From the NCBI GenBank assembly GCA_028718635.1, contig JAQULK010000001.1:396818-460817 (forward strand): DNA of 64,000 bases, written 5' to 3'. The stretch is from Minisyncoccota bacterium (GTDB lineage Bacteria; Patescibacteriota; Minisyncoccia; Phycocordibacterales; UBA9973). The notes beneath the pieces are model-generated. The model worked only from the letters and a program-made list of their open reading frames with translations. It was not told the origin of the DNA and made no database searches. Positions 5,244-63,750 of this stretch are shown one piece after another. Each line of letters opens with the position of its first letter. Position 1 is the stretch's first letter. The position numbers and the translations under genes are program-made.

Positions 5244-6095
5244 TTAATTTACATAATCTATTTCTTTTCCATTTTCTGGTATTATTTTTTTTATCACTAA
5301 TTTTTTATTTTCTAATTTAGCTTCGGTTATTTTTATTCTTTTGCCATTTTTTATGAAATATATACCCGGCCAGCCGTAAAGCGCGCAATATTTAGTGTAA
5401 ATTTCTTTTGGCGAATCATTTAACAAATCCACCAAACCATCTTCTTTTTTGATTTTTTCACAATAGGTTGCTTTAGATTCATCTTGAGGTTTTGGAGTTA
5501 TTTTTTCTTTTATATAATCCTCCAGTACTTTTACTAATAATTTTCCGCCTTCTCGAAAAAGTTTTTCTTCTAAAATAGGCAAAAGAGGAGGCCAATCCTT
5601 GTCATCTATTTCGACATTTTTTTGCGCCACGATCGGTCCATGATCCATTTTCTCATCTAAAATTATTACTGTTGCTCCAATATCTCTTTCATTGTTGAGT
5701 ATCGATGATCTTACAGGGGAAGGTCCGCGCAATCGAGGCAACATTGAGGGATGTACATTTAAAATTCCATGCTTCGGCATGTTTAGGATTTTTTGGGGCA
5801 GAATTTTTCCATAAGCAGTTAAGACAAAAACATCATATTCCATAAGCCCTGTCGGGTGTCCAACACCCGACAGGAAGTTTTCATCAATAACTTTAGGCTG
5901 GAGTGTCGGTATCCCATGAGCCTCTGCCCATTTTTTTACTGGCGGAGCTTCAAAATGGTGACCTCGTCCGATTTTTAAGTCTGGGGCAGTTACCACAAGA
6001 GAAGGGAAATATCCATCTTCTGCAAGTTCTTCTAATACATACACAGCCAAGTCTGGTGTTCCAAAGAATACAAATTTTAAGTTTTTGTTTTGCAT
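5244..6095 (-). CDS. fmt: Methionyl-tRNA formyltransferase
   Basis: 'FFGTPDLAV..L..L......VVTAPD...GRG.....PVK..A..HGIP' N-terminal formyltransferase domain plus a C-terminal domain. Start probably at the internal Met (MQNKNLKF). Confidence 0.85.
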   Translation of the reverse strand: MQNKNLKFVFFGTPDLAVYVLEELAEDGYFPSLVVTAPDLKIGRGHHFEAPPVKKWAEAHGIPTLQPKVIDENFLSGVGHPTGLMEYDVFVLTAYGKILPQKILNMPKHGILNVHPSMLPRLRGPSPVRSSILNNERDIGATVIILDEKMDHGPIVAQKNVEIDDKDWPPLLPILEEKLFREGGKLLVKVLEDYIKEKITPKPQDESKATYCEKIKKEDGLVDLLNDSPKEIYTKYCALYGWPGIYFIKNGKRIKITEAKLENKKLVIKKIIPENGKEIDYVN

Positions 6096-8551: not shown

Positions 8552-8603
8552 TACGAAGTAGCAATAAAATGGCAAAAAATTGCCGTCTTATTGCTACTTC
8601 GTA
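8552..8603. promoter_or_regulatory. Long perfect hairpin/palindrome (16-bp arms, nested 5-bp inner hairpin) ~80 nt upstream of the islet gene
   Basis: tacgaagtagcaataa ... ggcaa-aaaa-ttgcc ... ttattgctacttcgta. No T-tract on either side, so it is not a terminator. Possible operator or 5' leader structure. Confidence 0.4.
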
Positions 8604-8730: not shown

Positions 8731-8785
8731 GTTTTGGGCTTTGGGCATTCACCTCTTTAATTCCCCTCTGCCCAAAGCCCAAAAC
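8731..8785. repeat. 17-bp perfect inverted repeat (gttttgggctttgggca / tgcccaaagcccaaaac) with a 21-nt loop
   Basis: Seen directly. Lies in the non-coding spacer of the islet. Confidence 0.5.
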
Positions 8786-9007
8786 GGAAAATCTTATTTT
8801 GCTCTATATTATATAAAAGAAGACCAGAAGGAAACGAATAATAAGGATGAGAAAAAATTACATCGCCTAACAAGTTGTATCAGGTTCCAGAAATTCGCCT
8901 CAATTATCTTCCAAAGGAGTGCAAATTTCTTCCACCCAAATTTTTGCCTTCTTCTTTCTTTTATATTACACTAAGGAAAGAAGGCAAAAACTTCTGATAC
9001 AACTAAC

Positions 9008-9660: not shown

Positions 9661-9676
9661 GGGGTCAGGTACCTTT
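9661..9676. repeat. REP-like sequence, left flank of the RAYT
   Basis: ggggtcaggtaccttt. Its inverse complement occurs twice at the 3' flank. Confidence 0.6.
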
Positions 9677-9703: not shown

Positions 9704-10375
9704 ATGCCACGTTCACCACGAGTCGATGTTGGAAATGAGTTATACCATGTGATCAACCGTGCTAATGCTCGTTTACCTATTTTCTTCAAAGAAGAAGATT
9801 TTGAACTTTTTGTTTCTATTTTAGAAGATGCACAAAAAAAATACGACATGAGAATTATTGCATATTGTTTAATGCCAAATCACTTTCATCTTGTTTTATA
9901 TCCAAGACAAGATAATGATTTGCAGAAATTTATGCAATGGGTAACACTTACTCACACTCAAAGATGGCACATCCATAACAAAACAATTGGTAGTGGACAT
10001 CTGTATCAAGGGAGATATAAATCTTTTTTAATAGAAGGGGATAAGCATCTTTTGTCTGTGATTCGTTATGTAGAACGCAATCCATTACGCGCAAAATTAG
10101 TTAAAAAAGCAGAGAATTGGAAATTTAACAGTTTGTCATATAGGCTTTTTAAAAATACTAATAAAAAACTTCTATCCAAATGGCCAATAGAAGAACCGAA
10201 AGATTATCTTTCTTTTGTAAATACACCGCAAACAAATTTTGAAGAGGAAAGTATTAGAATACCAATAATTAAAAGTAACCCATTTGGAAGCATTGATTGG
10301 TCGATTAAAACTATTAAAAAATTTGGTCTTGAATCAACAATTAGACAAAAAGGAAGACCTAGAAAAGGTACCTGA
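9704..10375 (+). CDS. REP-associated tyrosine transposase (RAYT; IS200/IS605-family Y1 transposase-like)
   Basis: 'YHVINRANARLPIF', 'IIAYCLMPNHFHLVLYP' (HUH motif) and 'GHLYQGRYKSFLIEGDKHLLSVIRYVERNPLRAKLV' (catalytic Y). The stop lies inside the 3' REP. Confidence 0.8.
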   Translation: MPRSPRVDVGNELYHVINRANARLPIFFKEEDFELFVSILEDAQKKYDMRIIAYCLMPNHFHLVLYPRQDNDLQKFMQWVTLTHTQRWHIHNKTIGSGHLYQGRYKSFLIEGDKHLLSVIRYVERNPLRAKLVKKAENWKFNSLSYRLFKNTNKKLLSKWPIEEPKDYLSFVNTPQTNFEEESIRIPIIKSNPFGSIDWSIKTIKKFGLESTIRQKGRPRKGT

Positions 10376-10419
10376 CCCCTTTTATTCCTAGAAAAGGTAC
10401 CTGACCCCTTTTATTCCTT
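10364..10419. repeat. Two tandem 28-bp REP copies (aaaaggtacctgaccccttttattcc x2), inverted relative to 9661..9676
   Basis: Direct tandem duplication seen in the sequence. Only two copies and no spacer periodicity, so not CRISPR. Confidence 0.6.
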
Positions 10420-13753: not shown

Positions 13754-13800
13754 TCACCTCTCCCCAACCCTCTCCTGTCAGGAGAGGGCGAAGGGTGAGG
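13754..13800. repeat. GC-rich palindromic element (family E, short copy) in the lepB/pth divergent intergenic region
   Basis: cacctctccccaaccctctcc-tgtc-aggagagggcgaagggtgagg. Same consensus as the in-frame insert in lepA at 26480..26551. Confidence 0.5.
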
Positions 13801-20775: not shown

Positions 20776-21774
20776 ATGTTGAATCCGAAATTAAAATTGA
20801 ATCCCAAAATTTTCAATGACGATGTCGAACAGGTCCCCATACGTAAAGGTTTCGGGCAGGGGCTGTTGATAGCGGGTGGGGTTAGTGAAAATGTCGTAGG
20901 ACTTTGCGCCGACCTGACAGAAAGCACTCAAATGAATTTATTTGCGGAAAAATTTCCCAATAGATTTATCCAAGTCGGAGTAGCAGAACAAAACCTAGTA
21001 ACAGTGGCTTCGGGTATGGCAGCTATGGGCAAGATTCCTTTTTGTTCTTCTTATGCGATGTTTTCTCCCGGGAGAAATTGGGAACAAATCAGAACAACAA
21101 TAACTTACAATGATAGGCCGGTAAAAATCGTGGGCTCTCATTCGGGTATTTCTGTGGGTCCTGATGGCGGTACGCACCAAGCGCTTGAAGACATAGCTTT
21201 GATGCGGGTGATGCCGAACGTTGACGTCATTTCTCCTTGTGACGCCCTTGAAGCTAAAAAAGCGACAATAGCGCTTGCAAAAACGGGGAAACCAGCATAC
21301 TTGCGTCTTGTTCGTGAAAAAACGCCAATCATTACCACGGAGGAAACTCCTATGCAAATAGGTAAAGCAGAAATTTTTTGGATGCCGGATGTAGGGTTGG
21401 CCCAGGTGGGAATAATCGTTACTGGCGGACTCATGTCGCACGCGCTTTTTGCCGCCAAAGAATTAGAGCAAGAAGGCATAAAAACAAAAGTGATGAATTT
21501 ATCAAGTATAAAACCAATAGATTCTGAAGCAATTGTCGCTTTAGCAAAAGAATGTAAAGCAATAGTGACAGCAGAAGAACATCAAATTGCCGGAGGCATG
21601 GGTTCGGCTGTAGCAGAGGTTTTAGCGGCCAATTATCCAACTGCCATTGAATTCATCGGTGTGCATGACCGATTCGGCCAATCCGGTACTCCAAAAGAAC
21701 TTATCGAACATTATGGTATGGGCAAAAATTCTATCAAAGAAGCGGTGAGGAAAGTTTTAAAAAGAAAAATTTAA
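20776..21774 (+). CDS. tkt: Transketolase, C-terminal (pyrimidine-binding) subunit
   Basis: 'GVAEQNLVTVASGMA', 'GPDGGTHQALEDIALMR'. Confidence 0.9.
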   Translation: MLNPKLKLNPKIFNDDVEQVPIRKGFGQGLLIAGGVSENVVGLCADLTESTQMNLFAEKFPNRFIQVGVAEQNLVTVASGMAAMGKIPFCSSYAMFSPGRNWEQIRTTITYNDRPVKIVGSHSGISVGPDGGTHQALEDIALMRVMPNVDVISPCDALEAKKATIALAKTGKPAYLRLVREKTPIITTEETPMQIGKAEIFWMPDVGLAQVGIIVTGGLMSHALFAAKELEQEGIKTKVMNLSSIKPIDSEAIVALAKECKAIVTAEEHQIAGGMGSAVAEVLAANYPTAIEFIGVHDRFGQSGTPKELIEHYGMGKNSIKEAVRKVLKRKI

Positions 21775-21785
21775 AATAGAACTTT

Positions 21786-21866
21786 TTTCGGTACGGATTT
21801 TTTGAAGCTTAAAAAATCCTGAAGTTTTCGGCTCGACAGCCTCAAAACCCCTTCAAAAGTTTATTT
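21786..21866 (+). repeat. Family C ~80-nt REP-like intergenic element, copy 1
   Basis: aactttttcggtacgg-GGATTTTTT-gaagctta-AAAAAATCC-tgaagtt-GC hairpin (ggct-cgac-agcc)-aaaaccccttcaaaagtt. Confidence 0.7.
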
Positions 21867-22867
21867 TAAATTTTTACAGTTTTATAGCTTTCTGGTATAT
21901 TTTCTAGATATTCTTCCAATTTTTCTTTTGTCAAAAGTCCTCTTTGCGCTCCGACTTCTTGGACCACGGACATAGAGTTTATGCCTGCCCAAGCCAAAGC
22001 TTCAGGCAAAGTTTTACCCAATATGGTTGCAATTACAATAGTGGAGGAAAAAGCATCTCCAGCGCCGGTGCGTTCATGGGGAGGTTTTGGATCAGGGTAA
22101 GGGGGCATAAATAAGTACTCTGCGCCGTCAAAAGTATAAGCGCCTTTTGGTCCGTCTGTAATTATCACAGTCTTTGGCCCGAGAGAATAAATCTTTTGGA
22201 GTAATTCTTTGATTTCTCCGCTATCTAACCCTAATATTTTTTTTGCTTCCTCAACATTGCAGAAAAACATATCAGTATGTTTATAGAGTCTTTGCAATTT
22301 TTCTTTTCCCAATTTTATTTCAAATTTTCCCGGCTCGAAAGCGAATTTTGTTTCTGGATGGGCATCTAAATAGTCGGCTATAGTGTAATGAAAAGGAAAG
22401 GCTGTTTCATTTACAGAACTGAAATAAATCCATTTTGGTTCGTCAAATTCTGGCAAGCTGTATGGATAAATTTCATGTTTTATTAAAATAGTTCTTTCAG
22501 CTTCATACCATAGAACAAAATGTTGATTAGTTTTTATTCCAGAATTTATTTTTATCAACTCGGTGCCGACCCCGTCCTTTTTAAGTGAATCTAAACAATC
22601 TATTCCTGCTTTATCATCCCCAACGTTGGAAACGAGCTTTGTCTCAAGTCCTAGCCGAGCAGCTGCCACCGCAACATTGCCTGCATTACCTACGGCGGGG
22701 AGAGCAAAAACATCTTCGTATGGAACTTTGTCCGCAAAAGGCAGGCATATCTCGTAATCTTTATTGTCAGGAGTCCCCTTGATGCTTGCGTCTTTTAATT
22801 TAATAAAAACATCTATCACAATATCCCCAATTGCTAAAAAATCAATTTTTTTATTGTCTTCACTCAT
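21866..22867 (-). CDS. PfkB-family carbohydrate kinase (ribokinase/fructokinase-like)
   Basis: N-terminal GG motif 'GDIVIDV' and C-terminal 'TGAGDAFSS'. Confidence 0.8.
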   Translation of the reverse strand: MSEDNKKIDFLAIGDIVIDVFIKLKDASIKGTPDNKDYEICLPFADKVPYEDVFALPAVGNAGNVAVAAARLGLETKLVSNVGDDKAGIDCLDSLKKDGVGTELIKINSGIKTNQHFVLWYEAERTILIKHEIYPYSLPEFDEPKWIYFSSVNETAFPFHYTIADYLDAHPETKFAFEPGKFEIKLGKEKLQRLYKHTDMFFCNVEEAKKILGLDSGEIKELLQKIYSLGPKTVIITDGPKGAYTFDGAEYLFMPPYPDPKPPHERTGAGDAFSSTIVIATILGKTLPEALAWAGINSMSVVQEVGAQRGLLTKEKLEEYLENIPESYKTVKI

Positions 22868-22881
22868 GGTATCATTCTACC

Positions 22882-24207
22882 ATGTTTAAAAAACTGATTC
22901 TAGTGGGGTTTGTTTTTTTATTTTTGGGATTTAAGTTGGTATTAGCTACAGAAGTGACACCGATTATTTCTTATACTTTAAATGGAACTTCTTCCAATAT
23001 TGTGGCAAATCCTGTTGTTAATCCTGTAGAAATTAAGTTCTCTGCTAATGAAAACATACCTAATTGGGTTTCAATAAAAATTGAAAAAAACGATGATTCT
23101 AGTATTTATAAAACATTTTCTCCTAATTCTTGTGACGGCACCGCTTATTGTACTGAAACATGGAATGGTGCCATATCTCCTAAAAATAAAGTCTTAGTTG
23201 ATGGTATATATAATATTTCTGTTCATGTGAAGAAAGATGTTGCAAGCCCAGTTACTTACGATTTCATATTGACTTCGCCTTATACAATAACAGTTGATAG
23301 CTCTTTATCTACTCCGTTACCTGTCTCTGATTCACCTAGTAATGATTCAAATTCTTCAACCAACACTTCAACAACTCAGCCAGAACCCAAGCCAAAAGTG
23401 ATTGAAAATCCGACCATGAAAGTAAAAATTTTAGCCAATGCTTTAGCTTTTACCGGGCAACCGCTTGAAATAAAAACTAATGTCTTAGGGTTTTCCAATG
23501 AAAATGTTGTTCTCGGCAGGGCTTCGTGGAATTTTGGCGACGGCGGTTCGTTGGAACAAATAAATAATTTTGAAAAATTTTCTCATACTTATTATTATTC
23601 AGGCGAGTATGTTTTATTTTTGGAATACTACCAAAATAATTTTTCAAAAACCCCCGAAGCGACCAGCAAAATGGTGGTAAAAGTTCTTCCGACTTCTGTT
23701 TTTATTTCTAAAGTAGGGGATGCAAAAGATTTTTTTATTGAACTCTCAAACAATGCCAGCTCGGACATAGATATCTCAAATTGGGTCATTAATGCAAATG
23801 GAAAAATTTTTATTTTTCCCAAAAACAGCGTGATTATGTCTAAAAAACAAGTAATTGTTCCTGGTAAAATAACCGGATTTACCCAGAACGATCAAAACAA
23901 CTTAAAACTTTATTCTGGAACTGGTGAATTGATATCTGATTATAATGCGGAAATACAACCCCCTAAATCTCCCCATCAAAATATGACGAGTAAAGTTTCT
24001 ACAGCGGTTCAACCGCTGGGAAATTCAGGAACTATCAATTTACAAAGCAATGTTATGAATAGTAGCAGTGAAGACAATTACTCTGTGCCCATCATTCCCA
24101 TCGCTTCTTTTGTTTTTATTGGAGCTAGCGCGGGCGCAGTTTATTTTATTCGCCGGAAAAAAGCCGTTGTCCAAGAAGGGGATGATTTTGATATTTTAGA
24201 TGAATAA
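22882..24207 (+). CDS. Membrane-anchored surface protein with a lamin-tail-like domain
   Basis: Signal peptide MFKKLILVGFVFLFLGF, Ser/Thr/Pro linker, LTD-like 'DFFIELSNNASSDIDISNWVINANGKIFIFP', C-terminal TM plus 'RRKK'. Confidence 0.6.
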   Translation: MFKKLILVGFVFLFLGFKLVLATEVTPIISYTLNGTSSNIVANPVVNPVEIKFSANENIPNWVSIKIEKNDDSSIYKTFSPNSCDGTAYCTETWNGAISPKNKVLVDGIYNISVHVKKDVASPVTYDFILTSPYTITVDSSLSTPLPVSDSPSNDSNSSTNTSTTQPEPKPKVIENPTMKVKILANALAFTGQPLEIKTNVLGFSNENVVLGRASWNFGDGGSLEQINNFEKFSHTYYYSGEYVLFLEYYQNNFSKTPEATSKMVVKVLPTSVFISKVGDAKDFFIELSNNASSDIDISNWVINANGKIFIFPKNSVIMSKKQVIVPGKITGFTQNDQNNLKLYSGTGELISDYNAEIQPPKSPHQNMTSKVSTAVQPLGNSGTINLQSNVMNSSSEDNYSVPIIPIASFVFIGASAGAVYFIRRKKAVVQEGDDFDILDE

Positions 24208-24223
24208 AAGTTACGAAACATAA

Positions 24224-24306
24224 ACTTTTCTTTGGTACGGATTTTTCGAAGCTTGAAAAATCCTGAAGTTCTCGCGCCGTCGCGCTCGAAACCCCTTCGA
24301 AAAGTT
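24224..24306 (+). repeat. Family C element, copy 2, itself nested inside a 14-bp outer inverted repeat (gttacgaaacataa / ttatgtttcgtaac)
   Basis: cttttctttggtacggatttttcgaagcttgaaaaatcctgaagttctcgcgccgtcgcgctcgaaaccccttcgaaaag. Confidence 0.7.
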
Positions 24307-24396
24307 ATGTTTCGTAACTCACGATTATAATGCCCTTTGAAATAAGGGTTTTTTCTGCTAGAATAAAAAATAGGGCAAAAATTGTCCTCTTTTTAT

Positions 24397-26286: not shown

Positions 26287-28170
26287 ATGGATTTAAAACA
26301 CATTAGAAACTTTAGCATAATAGCGCACATTGACCACGGTAAAAGTACTTTAGCGGATAGAATGCTTGAAATTACGCATACAATAGAAACACGGAAAATG
26401 CGCAACCAGTTTTTAGACTCTATGGAACTGGAGCGCGAAAGAGGAATTACTATAAAAATGCAACCCGTTCGAATGGAATACACCCCTCCCCAAACCCCTC
26501 CCCAAAAGGGAGGGGCACCTTCTCTTTTGGAGAAGGCGGGGGAAGGGGTGTATATTTTAAATCTTATTGATACGCCCGGTCATATAGATTTTTCTTATGA
26601 AGTTTCTCGAGCATTAAAGGCGGTAGAGGGTTCTATTTTGCTTATTGACTCAACTCAAGGGGTGCAAGCGCAAACGCTTACCACTCTCGCTATGGCGCGA
26701 GAGGGAGGTCTTAAAATAATCCCAGTACTCTCTAAGATTGATTCGCCTTTATCCAGAGTTTCGGAGGTAAAAGATGAAGTAGTGGATCTTTTAAATTGCG
26801 ATCCGGATGAAATTTTATTAGTTTCTGGACGCACAGGAGAAGGAGTTGAAAATCTTCTTAAGGAAGTAATAAAACGAGTACCAGAACCAAAAGAAACCAT
26901 TTCGGACGTTGGACGTCTGGATTCCGGACGTCCAACGTCCGAAATCCTGCGCGCCTTAGTTTTTGATTTTAAATATTCAAATCATAGAGGGGTGATAGTT
27001 TTTGTGCGCGTCTTTGATGGAAAAGTCGCAAAGGGCGACAGTTTGGTTTTTGCAGTTTCTGGCGAGAAATTTACCGCTCTTGAAGTCGGAACTTTTTCTC
27101 CAGAAGAAACCCCGCGCGATTTTCTTTCTCCTGGGGACACGGGTTATATCGTCACTGGCATAAAGAAGCCCGGCATAGCATCCGTTGGAGATACTATTAC
27201 GATGTTTAAAAATCCTTTGCCTGCATTTGAGGGATATATGCAACCATTGCCCGTAGTGTGGGCGAGCGTTTTTCCAGAAGATGCGGATGATTTTGCAGAA
27301 TTAAAACTTGCTTTAGGAAAATTAAAACTTTCTGATTCAGCGTTTTCCTACGAAGAAGAATCTTCTGGGTCCTTGGGCAGGGGATTCAGATGCGGATTCT
27401 TAGGAATGCTTCATTTGGAAATTATCACTGAGAGACTAAAACGCGAATTTAATTTGGAATTAGTCATCACTACGCCTTCCATCACTTATGAAGTTTTGTT
27501 AAAAAATGGAAAAAGAGAAAAAGTTTATTCCCCGTTTCATTTTCCGGACGATGGCCTAATCGAGAAGGTTTTCGAGCCTTGGGTAAGTTTGAAGATTATT
27601 ACTCCAGTCCAATATGTCGGCAGTGTTATCCAACTTCTTTTTGACCATGAGGGAGAAGTAGGTGATACAGAGAATTTTGGAGACAATCGCTCTACTATCT
27701 CCGTGAAAATGCCCTTACGAGAGCTTATGCGGAATTTTTTCGATGAATTAAAAAGTATTTCTTCTGGTTATGCTTCAATTTCTTATTCCATTGGGGAATT
27801 GCGGGAGGCAAATGTCACTAGGCTTGATCTACTAGTAGCAGACGAAGTGGTGCCAGCTTTTTCTCGGGTGGTGGCTAAAAAGAGAGCTGAAGTTGAAGCA
27901 GAAAATGCCGTCTTAAAATTAGATAATTTATTGCCGAGACAAATGTTTACTTTGAAAATTCAAGGCCGAGCGCTTGGACGGATTATTTCTTCCCGCACGA
28001 AATTCGGCATGAAAAAGGATGTGACTCAGCATATGTATGGAGGCGATATTACGCGAAAAATGAAACTTCGAGAGAAACAAAAGAAAGGCAAAAAGAAGAT
28101 GAAGGAAAGGGGACGAGTGAACATTCCGCAAGATGTGTTTTTGAAAATGATGCGAACGGGGGAAAAGTAA
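26287..28170 (+). CDS. lepA: Elongation factor 4 (LepA) carrying two in-frame palindromic insertions
   Basis: 'IIAHIDHGKSTLADR' and 'DTPGHIDF' G-domain motifs. Extra segments 'TPPQTPPQKGGAPSLLEKAGEGV' and 'ISDVGRLDSGRPTSEI' relative to canonical LepA. Confidence 0.9.
   Translation: MDLKHIRNFSIIAHIDHGKSTLADRMLEITHTIETRKMRNQFLDSMELERERGITIKMQPVRMEYTPPQTPPQKGGAPSLLEKAGEGVYILNLIDTPGHIDFSYEVSRALKAVEGSILLIDSTQGVQAQTLTTLAMAREGGLKIIPVLSKIDSPLSRVSEVKDEVVDLLNCDPDEILLVSGRTGEGVENLLKEVIKRVPEPKETISDVGRLDSGRPTSEILRALVFDFKYSNHRGVIVFVRVFDGKVAKGDSLVFAVSGEKFTALEVGTFSPEETPRDFLSPGDTGYIVTGIKKPGIASVGDTITMFKNPLPAFEGYMQPLPVVWASVFPEDADDFAELKLALGKLKLSDSAFSYEEESSGSLGRGFRCGFLGMLHLEIITERLKREFNLELVITTPSITYEVLLKNGKREKVYSPFHFPDDGLIEKVFEPWVSLKIITPVQYVGSVIQLLFDHEGEVGDTENFGDNRSTISVKMPLRELMRNFFDELKSISSGYASISYSIGELREANVTRLDLLVADEVVPAFSRVVAKKRAEVEAENAVLKLDNLLPRQMFTLKIQGRALGRIISSRTKFGMKKDVTQHMYGGDITRKMKLREKQKKGKKKMKERGRVNIPQDVFLKMMRTGEK
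26480..26551 (+). repeat. Family E GC-rich palindromic element inserted in frame in lepA (72 nt, 24 codons)
   Basis: acacccctccccaaacccctcccc-aaaa-gggaggggcaccttctc-tttt-ggagaaggcgggggaaggggtgt. Nested inverted repeats. Confidence 0.65.
26899..26945 (+). repeat. Family F 19-bp-arm perfect palindrome inserted in frame in lepA
   Basis: atttcggacgttggacgtc-tggattccg-gacgtccaacgtccgaaat. Confidence 0.65.
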
Positions 28171-28172
28171 TG

Positions 28173-28300
28173 AAATGCGAAACTCTTTCTTGGCACAAGT
28201 TTTCTGTCAGCACACATAAAAATCTGCTGATTTTTTGCTATGCTCGGCTACCCGCCTGCGCAATGCTTCCATAAAACTATGCCTGCGACGAGTTTCGCAT
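28173..28300 (+). repeat. Family D element, second (rearranged) copy, intergenic after lepA
   Basis: Shares ~60 nt with the tsaD in-frame insert (43672..43800): ctgctgatttttt-gctatgctcggct..cctgcgcaatgcttcc and cacaagttttctg. Confidence 0.55.
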
Positions 28301-28442
28301 TTAAAATTACCTACCTAAAAATCGGCGAGTAGAGCAGGATCATGCTGATGATAATCAGTATACTTACTACTGCCCAAACTATTTGTATTTTCTTTTGATG
28401 TTTTTTATTAAAAAGCATACAATAAGGATAGCATATTATGAG

Positions 28443-40989: not shown

Positions 40990-43169
40990 TGTCCAATCAT
41001 TAAAAGTCCCGACCTATGTCGGGATCCCGACTCTGGTCGGGAATTTATAATTTGCCAAATTTCTTCTGTGACGAAAGGCATAAAAGGATGAAGTATTTTT
41101 AAACAATCTTTCCAGATTGAGGCTAAAGCAATTCTTCTTTCATCCGCTTTTTCACCGTTCGTTTTGAGAATCTCTTTTGTTTCCTCAATAATCTGATCAG
41201 CAAACCTGTGCCAAATATATTGGTATATTTTTTCTGACGCCAAATGGAAACGATAATTTTCCATATCAGTCGTTATATCTTCTTTGATTTCTTTAAACTC
41301 TTTTGTTAGTTTATTTTCTATAGTTTTTCCAAAGTTGTTTTCATCCACATTGTCTAAAATAAAACGGGTAATGTTCCAAATTTTATTTGCAAAATTTTTG
41401 TAGCCTTTTATTTTGTCCTCTGAAATTTTACTATCTGTGCCAGGCGCAGTGCCCACGATGAGCGCCATTCGTCCAGCATCGGCTCCGAATTTTTCCGCTA
41501 TATCAATAGGATCAAGCCCGTTATTTAGGGATTTAGACATCTTTCTTCCTTTTGCGTCCCGAACAGTTCCATGAAGGAATATATTTTTGAAAGGGACTTC
41601 ACCCAAAGCATATTCTGACATTAATACCATTCTCGCCACCCAAAAGAAAAGAATATCATAACCAGTTTCTAGGACGTCTGTGGGGTGATAGGTTTTTAGG
41701 TCTCCTGTTTTTTCGGGTTTACCCGCCGTAGTGGAAACGGAGGCGGGCCAGCCTAGAGTGGAAAAAGTCCAAAGTCCGGAAGAAAACCAAGTATCTAAGG
41801 TATCCTCATCTTGTTTCCAATTTTCACCAACAGGAGCTTTTGTGTCGCAATAAACTCCACCTTTACTGTCGTACCAAACTGGAATCCTGTGTCCATACCA
41901 AATTTGCCTTGAAATGCACCAATCGCGTAAATTTTCTATCCAGTGAAAATATGTTTTAGAAAAATAATCCGGAATAATTTTTATTTCTCCCTTGGAGAAT
42001 GGCTCACGCATCAAATCCTTGAGAGTTTTATTACCGCGTTCTTTTATAGGCTTATTTACGTTTATAAACCATTGCAATTTAGGAAGTGGTTCTATTGTTC
42101 CGCCAGTACGTTCAGCGGTAGCGATATTTTGTTTTATTTCTTCTTCTTTTTCTAGTAGATTTTGGGAGCGAAGCCATTCTACAATAATTTTTCTTGCTTC
42201 CGTTGTCTTTTTGCCTAGTAAACTTTCTCCGCCAATAGACATTTTGGCATATTCATTTATGACTTGCGGGCGAGGTAAGTCATGTCTGTCAGCCATTTCC
42301 CAGTCAATCATAGAATGGGCTGGAGTGACTCCAAGTGCTCCGGTGCCAAACTCTGGATCAACTTCTTTGTCAGCTATTATTTTAATATGAATTGGTACTT
42401 CACAAAACTTTAAATCATATTCTTTTCCAATAAATTTCTCATATCTTTTATCGTCAGGATGCACCGCTACAGCGGTGTCGCCGATCTTTGTTTCAGGTCT
42501 GGTGGTTGAAATTGCAATGGGAAATTCGTGGGAATACTTAAAAGTATAAAGCTTCGCTTCGCGTTCCTCATAAACTATTTCATCATCAGAAATTGTGGTT
42601 TGGCCTTTTGGGTCCCAATTTACTATTCTATTACCACGATAGATAAGTTCATCGTCATACATTTTCTTGAATATCGTGTTTACAGCAAGATTTCTTTTAT
42701 CATCTAAAGTAAAAGCTTCACGAGACCAGTCACATGAGGCGCCCATCGTTCTCATCTGCGATGTCATAATATCTCTATTTTTTTCTACAAATTCATCAAT
42801 GCGTTTTAGCAACTTTTCTCTCCCCAAATCATGCCTGGAAAGACCTTCCTTTTTTTGAATTTCTTTTTCAACTTTTGATTGGGTAGCAATGGAGGCATGA
42901 TCTGTTCCGGGCAACCAAAGCGTTTTATATCCTCGCATACGCTTGTAACGAATCATAATGTCTTCGAGCGTTAAAAAAAGGGCATGCCCCATGTGCAAAG
43001 TGCCGGTAGCGTTTGGCGGAGGCATCATGATAGTGAAAGCTTCTTTTTGCTGTCCGTCTTCCTTGCCAGGCAGATTGTCTGGGTTAAAAAAACCGCTTTC
43101 TTCCCAAAGTTTGTAAATTCTTTTTTCTGTATTTTTGGGGTCGTACGGCTTGAGTAACTTTTCGTTCAT
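40977..43169 (-). CDS. valS: Valyl-tRNA synthetase (short form, 730 aa, no C-terminal coiled coil)
   Basis: HIGH 'GTLHMGHA', KMSKS 'RKMSKS'. Two tandem cccgac-N4-gtcggg hairpins lie in the 3' end. Confidence 0.9.
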   Translation of the reverse strand: MNEKLLKPYDPKNTEKRIYKLWEESGFFNPDNLPGKEDGQQKEAFTIMMPPPNATGTLHMGHALFLTLEDIMIRYKRMRGYKTLWLPGTDHASIATQSKVEKEIQKKEGLSRHDLGREKLLKRIDEFVEKNRDIMTSQMRTMGASCDWSREAFTLDDKRNLAVNTIFKKMYDDELIYRGNRIVNWDPKGQTTISDDEIVYEEREAKLYTFKYSHEFPIAISTTRPETKIGDTAVAVHPDDKRYEKFIGKEYDLKFCEVPIHIKIIADKEVDPEFGTGALGVTPAHSMIDWEMADRHDLPRPQVINEYAKMSIGGESLLGKKTTEARKIIVEWLRSQNLLEKEEEIKQNIATAERTGGTIEPLPKLQWFINVNKPIKERGNKTLKDLMREPFSKGEIKIIPDYFSKTYFHWIENLRDWCISRQIWYGHRIPVWYDSKGGVYCDTKAPVGENWKQDEDTLDTWFSSGLWTFSTLGWPASVSTTAGKPEKTGDLKTYHPTDVLETGYDILFFWVARMVLMSEYALGEVPFKNIFLHGTVRDAKGRKMSKSLNNGLDPIDIAEKFGADAGRMALIVGTAPGTDSKISEDKIKGYKNFANKIWNITRFILDNVDENNFGKTIENKLTKEFKEIKEDITTDMENYRFHLASEKIYQYIWHRFADQIIEETKEILKTNGEKADERRIALASIWKDCLKILHPFMPFVTEEIWQIINSRPESGSRHRSGLLMIGQWPS

Positions 43170-43207: not shown

Positions 43208-44422
43208 TTAGAGCCTTAAATCACCAATTGCTTTTATGCTATCTAATTTAGGAACTTTCTTTTTATTTTTTATATAATTTAAGTACCCAGCAATCCCGAT
43301 CATTATGGAATTATCTCCAATAAGTCCTTTTGGTGGAAACATAAACTTGATTTTACTTTTAGTAATTTTCTTTATTTCATCTTGCAAATATTTATTTGCT
43401 GCAACCCCTCCGGCAACAATGAGAGTTTTTATATCGTATTTTTCTAAAGCTTTTTTTGTTTTATAGGTTAGACATTCGATGGCGGCGTTCTCAAATTCCA
43501 AAGCAATTTGTTTTTTTGTATTCTGATCGATTTTCTCAATTCCGCCTAGGTCTCTTATTAAATATAAAACTGCCGTTTTAAGACCAGAAAAAGAAAAATT
43601 AAAATCTTTTGTATGCAGCATCGGGCGGGGGAGGGAGAAAGAAAGAGAATCAATCTTTATAGTGTCGCGCGAGAGAGAGAAGCGAGAAACTTGTGCGGAC
43701 TCAGCACGCATAATTTTCTGCTGAAAATTTGCTATGCTCGGCTCGACAGCCTGCGCAATGCTTCCCTCGCACAAGTTTCTCGCTTCTCCAGCTAATTTTG
43801 AAATTTGTGGCCCTCCAGGGTAAGGCAGATCAAGCATTCTGGCTACTTTATCAAAAGCTTCTCCGACTGCATCATCAAGCGTTTTGCCAATGATTTCATA
43901 ATCCATCCACTTTTTCGAAAGTACTAATTGCGTATGTCCGCCAGACACTAGAAGCGTTAGGATTGGTGTTTCCACTTTTTTTATTTTAAAAGTTCCTTTT
44001 TCTTTTCCAAAAACGGAAAGAACATGTCCTTCCATATGATTGACCGGTATCAAGGGCACTTTCCATTTTTGGGCGAGTTCTTTGGCAAAGGCGATTCCGG
44101 TCCAAAGAGACATCTCAAGACCTGGACCATAAGTTATCATTATCGCGTCTATTGGCTTTTTCTTTTTATCTAATTTGGCTTGTTTAAGACAAAGCTCAAG
44201 TAAAATAGGTAGATTCTTGATATGTTCTTGTTTAGCGAGTTTTGGGAAAACACCTCCAAAAGGAATGTGAATATTTATTTGAGAATTTGAATTATTCGCC
44301 AACACTTTAAAGGAAGCATTTGTAATGCCTCCTTTCTTGCCCGCCTTCGGCGGGTGAACTTCCATAATACTTATTGCTGTATCATCGCAAGATGTTTCGA
44401 TGCTTAAGATTTTCATTGTCAT
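43208..44422 (-). CDS. tsaD: tRNA t6A37 threonylcarbamoyladenosine synthase TsaD (Kae1/Gcp), with a ~43-aa in-frame insertion
   Basis: 'HMEGH' metal site, 'GGPQISKLA' and 'DFNFSFSGLKTAV'. Extra ~43 aa between GGP and PRPM. Confidence 0.85.
   Translation of the reverse strand: MTMKILSIETSCDDTAISIMEVHPPKAGKKGGITNASFKVLANNSNSQINIHIPFGGVFPKLAKQEHIKNLPILLELCLKQAKLDKKKKPIDAIMITYGPGLEMSLWTGIAFAKELAQKWKVPLIPVNHMEGHVLSVFGKEKGTFKIKKVETPILTLLVSGGHTQLVLSKKWMDYEIIGKTLDDAVGEAFDKVARMLDLPYPGGPQISKLAGEARNLCEGSIAQAVEPSIANFQQKIMRAESAQVSRFSLSRDTIKIDSLSFSLPRPMLHTKDFNFSFSGLKTAVLYLIRDLGGIEKIDQNTKKQIALEFENAAIECLTYKTKKALEKYDIKTLIVAGGVAANKYLQDEIKKITKSKIKFMFPPKGLIGDNSIMIGIAGYLNYIKNKKKVPKLDSIKAIGDLRL
43672..43800. repeat. 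Family D palindromic element inserted in frame in tsaD (19-bp TIRs gaagcgagaaacttgtgcg / cgcacaagtttctcgcttc)
   Basis: TIRs seen directly. The core shares gctatgctcggctcgacagcctgcgcaatgcttcc with 28173..28300. Confidence 0.65.
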
Positions 44423-45416: not shown

Positions 45417-45498
45417 GGAGGGTTCGCCTAATGGTATGGCACTGGTTTCGAAAACCAGCGGGAGCAATCCCTTACAGGTTCAAGTCCTGTACCCTCCG
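45417..45498 (+). tRNA. tRNA-Ser (CGA), long variable arm
   Basis: Acceptor ggagggt/accctcc, anticodon stem ctggt/accag with loop ttCGAaa, 15-nt variable arm, T-arm acagg-ttcaagt-cctgt. Confidence 0.75.
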
Positions 45499-45511
45499 CA
45501 AATACTTTTCT

Positions 45512-45553
45512 ACTTGTGCAACATCCGATGTTGCACAAGTTTATTTTGCTTTT
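45512..45553. terminator. Intrinsic terminator (13-bp stem acttgtgcaacat/atgttgcacaagt) after tRNA-Ser, overlapping the trxB stop
   Basis: Hairpin followed by ttattttgctttt. Confidence 0.6.
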
Positions 45554-46545
45554 AGAGTAATATAGATATCTTCTATGGCGCGGACGGCATCGCCGGCTGC
45601 GATGAGGTTTTGATGATAGTGAATATTAGTGCAGTCCCCAGCAGCCCAAATTCCAAGGACTTCTGTTTTTTGGGACCAAGCATCTATTTTTACTTTACCT
45701 ATTTCATCTAAAGGAACCAAATCTTTTACAAAGTCAGTATTTGGAATCTGTCCGATTTCTACGAAAATGCCTGCTACTTTTAATTCTTTTTGTTCTCCGG
45801 AAATTTTATCCTTATAAATTATTCCTTCTACAAATTTATCGCCCTGTATTTCTAAAATATCAGCATTTTTTATTATTTTTATTTTTGGATTTTTTAAAAT
45901 TTTATCAATTGTAGTTTGGTCAGCGCGAAAAGAGTCGCTTCTGATTATAAGCGTGACAGATTTACAATATGCTAAAAGCTGGGAGGCTGATCCGAAAGCG
46001 GCATTACCTCCGCCGATCACAGCCACATCCATGTCTGCAAAAAGTGGACCATCACAACTGGCGCAGTAGGTAAGGCCTTTGTGCTCTAAAGTATCTGCAT
46101 TCTTAGCGGTGAGTTTTCTGTGTCCACTGCCGCTCCCTATTAAAATTGTTTTAGTTTCAAATTCCTTTCCAGATTCTGTTTTTACAGAAAAAAAGGAAGC
46201 AAGGCTTCCTTCAGCTCTTCCTTCAGCTGAAGGAAGCCTTGCTTCCTTTTTTTTAATTGCTGTTACTTTTTCGCCTTCTTTTACTTCTAGACTTTCTCCC
46301 ACATTTTCTAAAACATGTTTTTTAAAATTTTCTGCAAGTTGTGCTCCGGAGATAGCAGGGGATCCTATCCAATTTTTAATTTCTTCTGAAGCTATGCTCT
46401 GCCCACCCCACTCTGAAATAACAAAAAGTGTCTTCAGTTTCTTTCGAGCTGCGTAAACAGCCGCTGCGCTCCCAGCCGGCCCACCTCCAATAATTATTAG
46501 ATCGTAAATCATTTGCATATTATACATCATGAATAGGAATTTCAA
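45541..46545 (-). CDS. trxB: Thioredoxin-disulfide reductase with an in-frame palindromic insertion
   Basis: 'IIGGGPAGSAAAVYAAR' FAD site, 'CASCDG' redox centre. Extra 'KKEARLPSAEGRAEGSLASFF' segment. Confidence 0.85.
   Translation of the reverse strand: MKFLFMMYNMQMIYDLIIIGGGPAGSAAAVYAARKKLKTLFVISEWGGQSIASEEIKNWIGSPAISGAQLAENFKKHVLENVGESLEVKEGEKVTAIKKKEARLPSAEGRAEGSLASFFSVKTESGKEFETKTILIGSGSGHRKLTAKNADTLEHKGLTYCASCDGPLFADMDVAVIGGGNAAFGSASQLLAYCKSVTLIIRSDSFRADQTTIDKILKNPKIKIIKNADILEIQGDKFVEGIIYKDKISGEQKELKVAGIFVEIGQIPNTDFVKDLVPLDEIGKVKIDAWSQKTEVLGIWAAGDCTNIHYHQNLIAAGDAVRAIEDIYITLKAK
46187..46253. repeat. Family G 21-bp-arm perfect palindrome flanked by A7/T9, inserted in frame in trxB
   Basis: aaaaaaa-ggaagcaaggcttccttcagc-tcttccttca-gctgaaggaagccttgcttcc-ttttttttt. 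Confidence 0.7.
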
Positions 46546-46550
46546 AATAA

Positions 46551-46633
46551 ACTTTTGCAGGGGTTTTCCGAGCGACGGCGAGGAAACTTCAGGAATTTTT
46601 AAGCTTAAAAAATTCCGTACCGGAAAAAGTTTA
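46551..46633 (-). repeat. Family C element, copy 4 (minus orientation), between ftsZ and trxB
   Basis: Reverse complement reads aactttttccggtacgg-GGAATTTTTT-aagctt-AAAAATTCC-tgaagtt...aaaacccctgcaaaagtt. Confidence 0.7.
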
Positions 46634-46645
46634 ATTTTGGAATTC

Positions 46646-47851
46646 CTATTTCTTGTTGCGTCTCAAGAATGCTGGAACAGCGCTCCAGTCATCGCCATCA
46701 TCTTCTATGATATCTTCTTTGGTTTCTTTTTTTTCTATCTTTTTTATAAAATCATTATTGTGGATATTTGTACTGTGGGTATTGTGCAGATTGCTTTGGA
46801 TAGTATTGTGAATTTCTTTTTTTACTACTGCTGGAGTTTCATCTTTTAAAAGCTGGCCTGCTGTTGTTCCACTAAAAAGATTCTTGCGAGGCATATCGGC
46901 AGGGAACGAAGTGGCGATAACAGTGACTTTGATTTCTCCTTTTTTTAATTTTTCATCTCGGATTGTTCCAAAGATTACTTTAGCATCTTTATCGATTGAC
47001 TCTGTGATAATTTTTGCAGCTTCCTGAATTTCATTGATAGTCAAATCATCACCGCCAGAAATAGCAAACAATACTCCCTTGGCGCCGTGGATGGAGACCT
47101 CAAGAAGAGGTGAATTGATAGCGGCCAAAGCTGCTTTTTCAGCACGTTTCTCGCCAGAAGATGCGCCGATACCCATAAGTGCCGAGCCGGCGTTTGACAT
47201 TACAGCTCTAATGTCTGCAAAATCAACATTGATAATACCTGGAGTGGTAATCAAATCGGAAATTCCTTCTACGGCTTGGCGCAAGATATCATCGCATTTT
47301 GCAAAAGCGTCTTTGAAGTTAGTGTTTTTATCAGTCAATTGAAGTAATTTGTCGTTCGGAATAATAATGATCGCATCCACTTCTTTAGCCAAATCCTCAA
47401 TTCCTTTTTCCGCTATTTTCATACGGTGATTTCCTTCAAAAAAGAAAGGCTTGGTAGTGACTGCTACGGTCAAGATTCCTTGTTCTCTCGCTGCGCGAGC
47501 GACGATAGGAGCAGCTCCTGTGCCGGTGCCTCCACCCATTCCACAAGCAAGAAAAATCATGTCCGCCCCTTTGATGACGTCTTGGATTTCAGATTTTGTT
47601 TCTTCGGCTGCCTTTTTCCCAACTTCTGGATCCATGCCTGCGCCAAGACCCTTGGTAAGATTTTTTCCGATATGAATTTTTTTCTCAGCGAGGGAGTGGT
47701 GCAAGTCTTGAGTGTCAGTATTCATACAGATAAAAGAGACACCTTTGACTTTAGAATTTATCATATGGTTCACCGCGTTCTTGCCTGATCCACCGATTCC
47801 GATGACCATAATGCGAGCAAAACTTTGTATTTCTTGGTTTATTTTTGGCAT
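46646..47851 (-). CDS. ftsZ: Cell division GTPase FtsZ
   Basis: 'GGGTGTGAAPIVA' tubulin signature. Confidence 0.95.
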   Translation of the reverse strand: MPKINQEIQSFARIMVIGIGGSGKNAVNHMINSKVKGVSFICMNTDTQDLHHSLAEKKIHIGKNLTKGLGAGMDPEVGKKAAEETKSEIQDVIKGADMIFLACGMGGGTGTGAAPIVARAAREQGILTVAVTTKPFFFEGNHRMKIAEKGIEDLAKEVDAIIIIPNDKLLQLTDKNTNFKDAFAKCDDILRQAVEGISDLITTPGIINVDFADIRAVMSNAGSALMGIGASSGEKRAEKAALAAINSPLLEVSIHGAKGVLFAISGGDDLTINEIQEAAKIITESIDKDAKVIFGTIRDEKLKKGEIKVTVIATSFPADMPRKNLFSGTTAGQLLKDETPAVVKKEIHNTIQSNLHNTHSTNIHNNDFIKKIEKKETKEDIIEDDGDDWSAVPAFLRRNKK

Positions 47852-49175: not shown

Positions 49176-49556
49176 CTAGCCGTTACGGGATAAATATTTT
49201 TCTTCCATTTCTTCCATTTTCGAGCCGTGTTCATATCCTTTTAGATGCAGCATTCCGTGGATAACTAAAAAGCCCAAAAAGTCGCTGAAAGTTTTGTTAA
49301 AATTTTTAGCCTCCTTTTTTATAACAGCGGGGCACAATATTATTTCTCCTTCATTTTTACTTAACAAAAAAGATAAAATGTTTGTGGGTTTATTTTTGTT
49401 CCTATATTTTTTATTTATTTCTTTAGAAGTTTTTTCATCGACGCAAGCGATGGACAAGGAATATTTCTTACCTAAAATATCTTCTTTTAAAAGTACAAAA
49501 GGCAAGCGAGGAAGCTTGCCTTTTGTTTTGTTTATTAAAGAAAAATTCTCCTCCAT
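49176..49556 (-). CDS. ybeY: Endoribonuclease YbeY (rRNA maturation)
   Basis: 'HGMLHLKGYEH' zinc-binding H3xH5xH motif. Confidence 0.85.
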   Translation of the reverse strand: MEENFSLINKTKGKLPRLPFVLLKEDILGKKYSLSIACVDEKTSKEINKKYRNKNKPTNILSFLLSKNEGEIILCPAVIKKEAKNFNKTFSDFLGFLVIHGMLHLKGYEHGSKMEEMEEKYLSRNG

Positions 49557-63515: not shown

Positions 63516-63637
63516 CCCATTAAAAATTTTAATTAATAATCTATATCATTATAACATGTTTTTTGAATTTCTAACGGGACAGGTAGTGCTATTTTAGCAT
63601 ACTTCTGGTATGATTTATATAGATTTATAAAATATCA

Positions 63638-63720
63638 ATTTTTCTTCGGTACGGATTTTTTTCTGTTGAAAAAAATCCTGAAGTTCTCGCGCCGTCGCGC
63701 TCGAAACCCCTTCAAAAATT
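63638..63720 (+). repeat. Family C element, copy 3
   Basis: aatttttcttcggtacgg-GGATTTTTTT-ctgttg-AAAAAAATCC-tgaagttctcgcgccgtcgcgctcgaaaccccttcaaaaatt. Confidence 0.7.
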
Positions 63721-63750
63721 ATATTTTATAAATTTTTGTTATGTTACACG

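Follow-up and report, generated by a model that had tools for sequence, protein, structure and literature searches.

A perfect palindrome in frame in trxB of a Minisyncoccota bacterium: a probable hairpin element of the REP-doublet type

Introduction

Long perfect palindromes are rare inside essential genes because they conflict with protein function and with DNA stability. In the AT-rich mitochondrial genomes of fungi, small mobile GC-rich hairpins (GC clusters or double-hairpin elements) can occupy coding regions. Here we describe a perfect palindrome that lies in frame in trxB, a gene for a thioredoxin reductase (TrxR)-like protein, of a Minisyncoccota bacterium (assembly GCA_028718635.1, contig JAQULK010000001.1, positions 396,818 to 460,817). 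This whole stretch of 64,000 nucleotides is called the window, and all coordinates without a locus name are counted from its first letter.

Rickettsia palindromic elements (RPEs) are palindromic repeats found in frame in Rickettsia genes (Ogata et al., 2000, as cited in PMC3733652). Intragenic dimers of repetitive extragenic palindromes (REPs) that encode 20–30 residues occur in Opitutus terrae, Thauera, and Rickettsia conorii (Di Nocera et al., 2013; PMC3733652), and coding palindromes are present in mitochondrial genes of Nematomorpha (Mikhailov et al., 2019; PMC6649704). In the searchable literature, we found nothing that links REPs, REP-associated tyrosine transposases (RAYTs), or palindromic or in-frame insertions with Patescibacteria, the candidate phyla radiation (CPR), or Parcubacteria, which is no proof of absence.

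We favor, with a probability of about 0.72, the explanation that the trxB palindrome is an in-frame copy of a selfish hairpin element, a REP doublet similar to REPINs and RPEs, that is tolerated in a permissive loop of the protein. The case shows ultra-small CPR genomes, with almost no intergenic space, to carry several REP- or RPE-like hairpin families inside their housekeeping genes.

Results

Structure of the palindrome

The palindrome spans 46188..46253; palindromes are given without strand. An inverted-repeat search returned two arms of 29 nt (46188–46216 and 46225–46253) that are 100% complementary and 8 nt apart, and each arm consists of A7, the 21-mer GGAAGCAAGGCTTCCTTCAGC, and T. An earlier sequence-only reading had reported a perfect palindrome at 46187–46253, with 21-bp arms and a T9 run. 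The palindrome is real and the 21-mer is present in both arms, but position 46187 is a G, so that this span starts one base early; the perfect arms extend to 29 nt around the 8-nt loop, and the run is a T8 (46247–46254). The resemblance to a bidirectional intrinsic terminator held, since the consensus was matched on both strands (20 counted pairs, 8-nt loop, T-rich tail).

The 21-mer occurs in the window only as the two arm copies, with 0 expected from 100 shuffles. The RNA of the sense strand folds into a 28-bp stem followed by U7, at −54.7 kcal/mol versus −22.3 ± 3.4 for shuffled sequences (z = −9.65). Eight GC-containing palindromes with a stem of at least 10 bp are present in the window, the longest with 29; Markov-simulated windows of the same composition had 0–1, the longest with 11. 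The region 45417–47012, palindrome included, was reproduced at 1596 of 1596 bases in the Logan assembly of the public read set SRR22315506, possibly the same sample as the source metagenome-assembled genome (MAG). This identical second assembly, together with homologous elements in many independent MAGs, ruled out an assembly artefact.

Each arm holds a REP-like mini-hairpin: unit 1, GGAAGC-AAG-GCTTCC, at 46195..46209, and unit 2, GGAAGC-CTT-GCTTCC, inverted with respect to unit 1, at 46232..46246. Two 15-nt units of the form GGAAGC-NNN-GCTTCC are thus placed within 29-nt arms as an inverted doublet of a GC-rich palindromic unit, the layout of REP and REPIN elements. Other trxB orthologues share the 15-nt core of unit 1, which also turns up in metagenomes, on at least 120 contigs. 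At the center, CTTCCTTCAGCT stands in tandem (46205–46216 and 46217–46228, together 46205..46228) and is read as AEGR/AEGS in the protein. Relative to the version in the orthologues L201 and L202 (L and P numbers are our handles for related loci and proteins), this 12-nt duplication accounts for the apparent loop and for four extra residues. When one copy of CTTCCTTCAGCT is removed, a 54-nt palindrome with zero loop, centered on AGCT, is left; an alternative zero-loop palindrome lies at 46217–46236. The sequence and the comparison with L201 and L202 identify the duplication as a secondary slippage event.

Further copies were sought in the window with the 21-mer (up to 3 mismatches) and the 15-nt core (up to 2 mismatches), and only the two arms and chance-level matches were recovered. 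The exact 21-mer had 0 matches in the GTDB genome collection, which apparently holds no representatives of the source species, so that this negative carries no information on the number of copies in the source genome. Rfam at gathering thresholds gave only seven tRNAs in the window; the palindrome and the ~115-nt repeats described below were unmatched.

The host gene and the protein site

The product of the host gene (45541..46512, minus strand) is a low-Mr thioredoxin-reductase/AhpF-C-like flavoprotein; it is 323 aa long and contains a CASC redox motif (Pfam Pyr_redox_2, 2e-38; AhpF structure, 3e-57; TrxR structure, 8e-51). The annotated start is 46512, and the annotation of a "Candidatus Pacebacteria" MAG includes an identical protein of 323 aa. 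The palindrome occupies codons ~87–108 and is translated in frame as KKKEARLPSAEGRAEGSLASFF; that it lengthens a TrxR-family protein, as the sequence-only reading had stated, is borne out by the 308 aa of insert-free orthologues. The length of 334 aa given there counts from an upstream TTG.

The insert had also been assigned to the NADPH domain. In alignments with the AhpF and TrxR structures it falls instead in a variable turn of the β-meander of the FAD domain, ahead of the crossover to the NADPH domain, with domain boundaries as in AhpF and in TrxR of E. coli. The structure predicted with AlphaFold2 (mean pLDDT 70.7) has strands at residues 83–92 and 104–112 on both sides of a low-confidence tip (94–104). 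According to this model, the insert is the lengthened tip of an existing β-hairpin on the surface of the FAD domain; a surface position away from the catalytic residues, as in RPE-carrying proteins, is thus predicted by the model and agrees with the alignment to a variable turn.

A 14-bp perfect hairpin (45512–45540) abuts the trxB stop codon and has a T-rich tail on the plus strand only. It was considered as the "real" trxB terminator and rejected because of this strand: the tail points to a terminator for the convergent tRNA (45417–45498).

An insertion hot spot in trxB of related genomes

We compared the 120 closest homologues (72–83% identity), the DNA of 80 GTDB species representatives, and a total of 182 distinct orthologues. 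Insert-free orthologues have a base length of 308 aa and read KK-DGN-F at the turn where the palindrome lies. About half of the 120 closest homologues have extra residues exactly at this turn, and the extra peptides read like translated palindromes (EALLPS..GSKAS, TRTVLKEVSPRTVLEN, DVGRLDSRRPTSV, PKALSK..ALG, and AVKPL..SGFTA). Four or more extra residues were present in 78 of the 182 orthologues (43%), and 57% had none. A reading of the palindrome as a regulatory oddity unique to trxB finds no support in this comparison: the site receives different inserts in different lineages.

Among the 80 GTDB loci, a perfect stem of 13–22 bp was found at the site in 15, and one of 9–11 bp in three more. 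The inserts for which DNA was examined are mostly palindromes and belong to at least six unrelated sequence families: GGAAGCCTTGCTTCC (L019, L022, L032, L052, and L058), GACGTTGGACGTC (L034 and L042), AAGAACGGTTCTT (L008, L059, and L073), CCTAAAGCGCT (L021, L038, and L051), GAGGCCTTGCCTC (L028 and L029), TGTCGGGTGTTGGACACCCGACA (L023), and AGCGGTTGAAC (L050 and L056). Empty sites have the form AAAAAA-N8/9-TTTTTT and consist of native lysine and phenylalanine codons, which is why the element of the window is bordered by terminator-like A and T runs. In the window gene and in L201 and L202, a GGAAGC palindrome replaces the DGN of insert-free genes. As with RPEs, the insertion is in frame and absent from orthologues: the site is empty in L001, P0004, and 99 other orthologues, and the open reading frame (ORF) of the window gene is intact.

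When a trxB tree was computed with the insert region left out, the sequences closest to the window gene were either empty (P0004 and L001) or carried EALLP (P0002), AVKPL (P0003 and P0005), or DVGRP (P0006). The junctions vary by a few bases also among members of the GGAAGC family, the element standing after the KK codons in the window, L201, and L202, and before the K codon in L019, L052, L022, and L032. These sequence comparisons indicate a hot spot in trxB that took up inserts many times independently, rather than a single ancient insertion. No convincing common target motif or target-site duplication was found at the trxB junctions; TTAC precedes the element in L019 and L034 and not in the others. 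The GGAAGC palindrome has been kept in the L201 and L202 orthologues, which are merely 75–83% identical to the window protein, and therefore sufficient expression of full-length trxB must survive its presence.

The arms of the GGAAGC family change together. We aligned nine of its orthologous trxB copies and counted the pairs of the long hairpin: 92% of the cells were paired, and 16 of the 27 pairs had changes on both sides. None of 500 shuffles reached these values, and when the partners were slid by 1–3 columns, pairing fell to 35–58%, with 2–6 both-side pairs. The co-variation reaches the flanking lysine and phenylalanine codons (for example, AAG with CTT in L202). In the window copy the 3-nt mini-loop is flipped in both arms (AAG/CTT, versus CTT/AAG in relatives), and symmetry is still perfect. 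Selection on the hairpin, template-switch correction, or repeated insertion of diverged master copies could each produce this pattern; the data do not separate the three.

Related elements in other genes and genomes

Related palindromes are present in other genes and genomes. In-frame elements are present in at least five genes of the window. The palindrome in lepA (26899..26945, SDVGRLDSGRPTSE) belongs to the same GACGTTGGACGTC type as the trxB inserts of L034 and L042. A hairpin of the TGTCGGGTGTTGGACACCCGACA type in fmt (5848..5874, translated SGVGHPTG) shares an identical 23-nt core with the trxB hot spot of L023. The C-terminus of valS contains a double hairpin (41003..41046; TCCCGAC..GTCGGGA, twice), and tsaD (43208–44422, minus strand) carries a ~126-nt inverted-repeat element (43677..43788) that encodes 42 aa (LAGEARNLCEGSIAQAVEPSIANFQQKIMRAESAQVSRFSLS) and has 21-nt perfect arms with 70 nt between them.

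These sites are also variable in relatives. Most Paceibacteria TsaD orthologues have different inserts of 20–45 residues at the position of the tsaD element, several with an FQQK peptide that is a translated hairpin. In related loci, rsmH and tsaD each have one loop with different in-frame palindromes in different genomes; rsmH of L023 holds the GAAGCAAGGCTT palindrome. The lepA genes of L081 and L174 have a GGAAGC-type doublet at the site of the window lepA element. Single hairpins of these families are found between genes as well, such as AAAAACGGAAGCAAGGCTTCCGTTTTT in L002.

When metagenomes were scanned for doublets of GGAAGCNNNGCTTCC, with no more than 30 nt between the two units, at least 120 contigs contained one. 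Among the matches listed, most lie inside long ORFs, all three frames are used (LEARLPSGSRAS, RKLSFP, and WKLSFQ), and lepA and tsaD appear at the hot spots described above. No frame of the core contains a stop codon except where the 3-nt loop supplies one, and this accounts for the tolerance of the core in coding sequence. Related loci of 5–15 kb usually contain one GGAAGC doublet. The occurrence of one family in unrelated genes and in intergenic DNA, a trait of RPEs, is therefore seen at the level of the lineage, across related genomes.

LepA (26287–28170) of the window has a second lineage-specific segment at residues ~66–88 of its G domain (PPQTPPQKGGAPSLLEKAGEGV), which may be a decayed element, as judged from its protein sequence.

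RAYT-like Y1 transposases and their hairpins

Two hairpin-containing ORFs were identified as distant Y1 transposases of the IS200/RAYT type. Fourteen RAYT-like genes were found among the fetched loci, in addition to a better-scoring RAYT in the window. All of the proteins keep the HUH motif (MPNHFH) and the region of the catalytic tyrosine (YIHLNP); those of the fetched loci are distant from curated models and fall below the NCBIfam cutoff. The window RAYT (Y1/HUH) gene (9704..10375, plus strand) reaches 61 bits with Pfam Y1_Tnp and 78.4 bits with NCBIfam REP_Tyr_transpos (cutoff 80). It is bracketed by inverted GGGGTCAGGTACC repeats at 9661–9673 (plus), 10367–10379 (minus), and 10396–10408 (minus), the downstream copy being tandemly duplicated.

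Several RAYT-like genes of related loci have 2–4 copies of a locus-specific hairpin beside and inside the ORF (L052 3426–4450, L007 4015–4773, L031 3408–4805, L039 3918–4246, L059 7444–8569, and L083 11377–12149). In the proteins of L052, L007, L039, and L031, one copy is in frame immediately after the HUH motif. Units of GGAAGCTCAGCTTCC, from the family of the window trxB element, stand at the beginning of the L083 gene, within it, and 9 nt past its end. Each of the two outer hairpins of L031 runs on into TAG, so that GGGGTAG, the classical REP tag, results. Judging by position and sequence, hairpins beside and inside these genes appear to form a REPtron arrangement, and a transposase gene that harbors its own hairpin could be autoregulated in this way.

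The hairpins next to RAYT-like genes mostly differ from the trxB palindrome of the same locus (L052 shares only GCGGAAG), and no one-to-one cognate relation was established. The rsmH doublet of L008 resembles the hairpins beside the RAYT-like genes of the related loci L020 and L059.

Upstream of the RAYT region of the window, three hairpins (8552–8603, 8731–8785, and 8938–8993) lie in a ~1.1-kb stretch without a long ORF.

A ~115-nt structured repeat and other hairpins

The spacer between ftsZ and trxB is filled by one copy of a ~115-nt structured intergenic repeat (46532..46651, minus strand). Other copies are at 21760–21879, 24204–24326, and 63619–63739 (all plus), and a related subfamily is at 28173–28302 and 43677–43788. 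The repeat has terminal inverted repeats of 20–25 nt and a conserved core (CGGTACGGATTTTTTGAAGCTTCAAAAAATCCTGAAGTTCTCGCGCCGTCGCGCTCGAAACCCCTTC). With nhmmer it was detected in 19 of the fetched loci; in 11 of these it stands, in one or the other orientation, immediately upstream of trxB. RNAalifold predicted three helices from 18 copies, and 18 of the 30 pairs had compensatory changes. There is a loose resemblance between the GGTAC and ACCCCTT ends of this family and the repeats that flank the window RAYT. It is a second element family, and one that also invades genes.

Two further hairpins were observed. In ybeY (49176–49556, minus strand), a hairpin at 49495–49526 (ACAAAAGGCAAGC-loop-GCTTGCCTTTTGT) encodes TKGKLPxLPF near the N-terminus; its stem nucleotides are conserved in at least 12 related genomes and its loop is variable. 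Either a fixed coding hairpin or a signal at the RNA level, ~30 nt into the ORF, is conceivable. The hairpin CCCTCTCCTGTCAGGAGAGGG (13768–13788) lies just upstream of the likely start of pth, and the same hairpin (CCCTCTCC..GGAGAGGG) recurs in L023, L034, L038, and L076, once in frame in tsaD.

Discussion

A model of the trxB element

We propose that the mobile unit is the mini-hairpin GGAAGC-NNN-GCTTCC, two inverted copies of which, with their flanks, make up the long palindrome. Placed at the tip of a β-hairpin of the FAD domain that tolerates extra residues, the element would be translated as an extension of that hairpin. As the sequence comparisons show, Paceibacteria harbor several such families between genes, some of them terminator-like between A and T runs, and also inside housekeeping genes, where copies are always open in frame and recur at the hot-spot loops of trxB, rsmH, tsaD, and lepA. 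RAYT-like Y1 (HUH) transposases, acting on hairpins of single-stranded DNA, may spread and perhaps excise them. Perfect symmetry might be kept because the machinery recognizes the hairpin as such, or by intrastrand template-switch correction. Transcription would mostly read through the element, with translating ribosomes keeping the hairpin open.

Some observations weigh against this model. The insert takes the place of ~9 nt, with neither a clean insertion nor a target-site duplication at the junctions. The GGAAGC element is single-copy within the 64-kb window, and the window RAYT is flanked by GGGGTCAGGTACC, a repeat other than the trxB element. None of the tag motifs GTAG, CTAC, CGTC, and GACG is present in 46188–46253. 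If trxB alleles have recombined between lineages, independent insertions may have been overcounted, and the palindrome may have a regulatory side effect. In addition, the mobilization of REPs by RAYTs is only partly demonstrated (in vitro, with E. coli TnpA-REP). We give the involvement of RAYT-like transposases roughly even odds. That the RAYT-like Y1 system actively targets the hot spots in trxB, rsmH, tsaD, and lepA, inserting, swapping, and precisely excising in-frame palindromes that the cells use, for example, as translation-dependent attenuators, RNase III sites, or a source of surface-loop variation, seems to us rather improbable.

Alternative explanations

A functional intragenic intrinsic terminator or attenuator, in which the hairpin and its U tract would stop RNA polymerase when translation lags and thereby tune TrxR, draws on real features: the consensus is matched on both strands, a 9-bp mini-hairpin with the T run scores even alone, the internal hairpin is a better-looking terminator on the trxB strand than the stop-codon hairpin at 45512–45540, and the A-run/hairpin/T-run geometry is repeated in L183, L201, and L202. 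However, 57% of the orthologues have no hairpin at the site and the occupied sites hold mutually unrelated sequences, several of which (e.g., L034, L042, and L008) have no T tract directly after the hairpin, and the A and T runs are pre-existing lysine and phenylalanine codons. Many unrelated genes contain the same elements in frame, with each of the three reading frames in use, which does not fit gene-specific regulation, and translating ribosomes normally suppress hairpin formation within an ORF. We consider a terminator function distinctly unlikely; the resemblance arises because a GC-rich hairpin happens to lie between lysine (AAA) and phenylalanine (TTT) codons.

A dispersed hairpin family could also be copied without a transposase, by template switching or microhomology-mediated gene conversion that carries A-run/GC-hairpin/T-run terminators into A-run...T-run sites. 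The form of the empty site (AAAAAA-N8/9-TTTTTT) and the exchange of its spacer for the insert without target duplication would suit this route, as would the intergenic A5-GGAAGCAAGGCTTCC-T5 hairpin of L002 and the co-variation of the flanking lysine and phenylalanine codons with the arms (AAG with CTT in L202). It is nevertheless unlikely, because the hot spots in lepA, fmt, rsmH, and tsaD have no A-run/T-run flanks and because hairpins are concentrated within and next to RAYT-like genes, much as in a REPtron. Template switching is a known way of making and perfecting palindromes, and the 12-nt central duplication points to local slippage, with the arms staying perfectly matched; an origin in situ, by local inverted duplication or quasi-palindrome correction in a permissive loop and with no outside copying, is nonetheless very improbable and largely refuted by identical or near-identical palindromes in unrelated genes, in intergenic DNA, and in many genomes. 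The last alternative, to which we attach hardly any weight, is an insertion selected for its peptide, with incidental DNA symmetry, or else an assembly artefact. The insert is in frame and kept in several lineages, as an adaptive peptide would be, but proteins differ in which of the three frames of this DNA they use, and the DNA is also found outside genes, and the peptides at the site are unrelated between families; an artefact conflicts with the second assembly and the independent MAGs mentioned above.

Significance

The repeated hits of the same loops by different families chart, in nature, where conserved enzymes tolerate insertions. With many genomes and independent events available, this is a system in which to ask how RAYTs choose their targets and how cells keep perfect palindromes. 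It also carries a warning for annotation: programs that predict terminators will report these hairpins within genes, and the residues that the hairpins add are no functional motifs.

Comparison with known systems

Bidirectional Rho-independent terminators share with the trxB palindrome the A-tract, the GC-rich stem-loop, and the T-tract, and a related single hairpin is intergenic (L002 4445–4471); the consensus scan and folding both place a GC-rich stem-loop before a U tract on the transcribed strand. Unlike terminators, the palindrome is not at the end of a transcription unit but a third into an intact, conserved ORF, and its presence is not conserved among orthologues. It also differs from miniature inverted-repeat transposable elements, since the whole element is a single hairpin and not a core between terminal inverted repeats derived from an insertion sequence, and target-site duplication is lacking. 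Fungal GC clusters have a similar two-hairpin architecture, but they are organellar, unrelated in sequence, and without an associated Y1 transposase. As in Nematomorpha, perfect inverted repeats lie in translated genes and both arms are coding; the Nematomorpha repeats, however, cover conserved protein regions and are not described as dispersed insertions, whereas those studied here are lineage-specific insertions in variable loops.

The likeness to REPs and REPINs lies in the short GC-rich units, in their inverted pairing into a longer hairpin, and in Y1/HUH genes flanked by hairpins of their own. Classical REPs are extragenic (with intragenic ones a documented minority), have tens to hundreds of copies, and carry a GTAG/CGTC tag, while the trxB element is intragenic (inside the ORF 45541–46512), single-copy in the window, and untagged; the lepA element, unlike it, contains GACG/CGTC. 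In contrast to classical RAYTs, the RAYT-like proteins described here carry a hairpin inside their own ORF.

RPEs, like the elements of this study, are palindromic repeats in frame in housekeeping genes, absent from orthologues and located in surface regions compatible with folding; their families also occur between genes, and their hosts have small AT-rich genomes. RPE-1 measures 100–150 bp compared with 54–66 nt for the trxB element, and the ~126-nt tsaD insert, nearer in size, is its closest analogue in the window. Judged by this length and by the host, the trxB element probably does not belong to the Rickettsia families RPE-1 to RPE-8. The present elements further differ from RPEs in that the host is one of the Paceibacteria (CPR) and not of the Rickettsiales, many families share one codon position, and the hairpins are associated with RAYT-like genes. 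What sets the present case apart is the CPR/Paceibacteria host, the high density of the elements, the return of different families to identical codon positions in a number of essential genes, and the hairpin inside RAYT-like ORFs.

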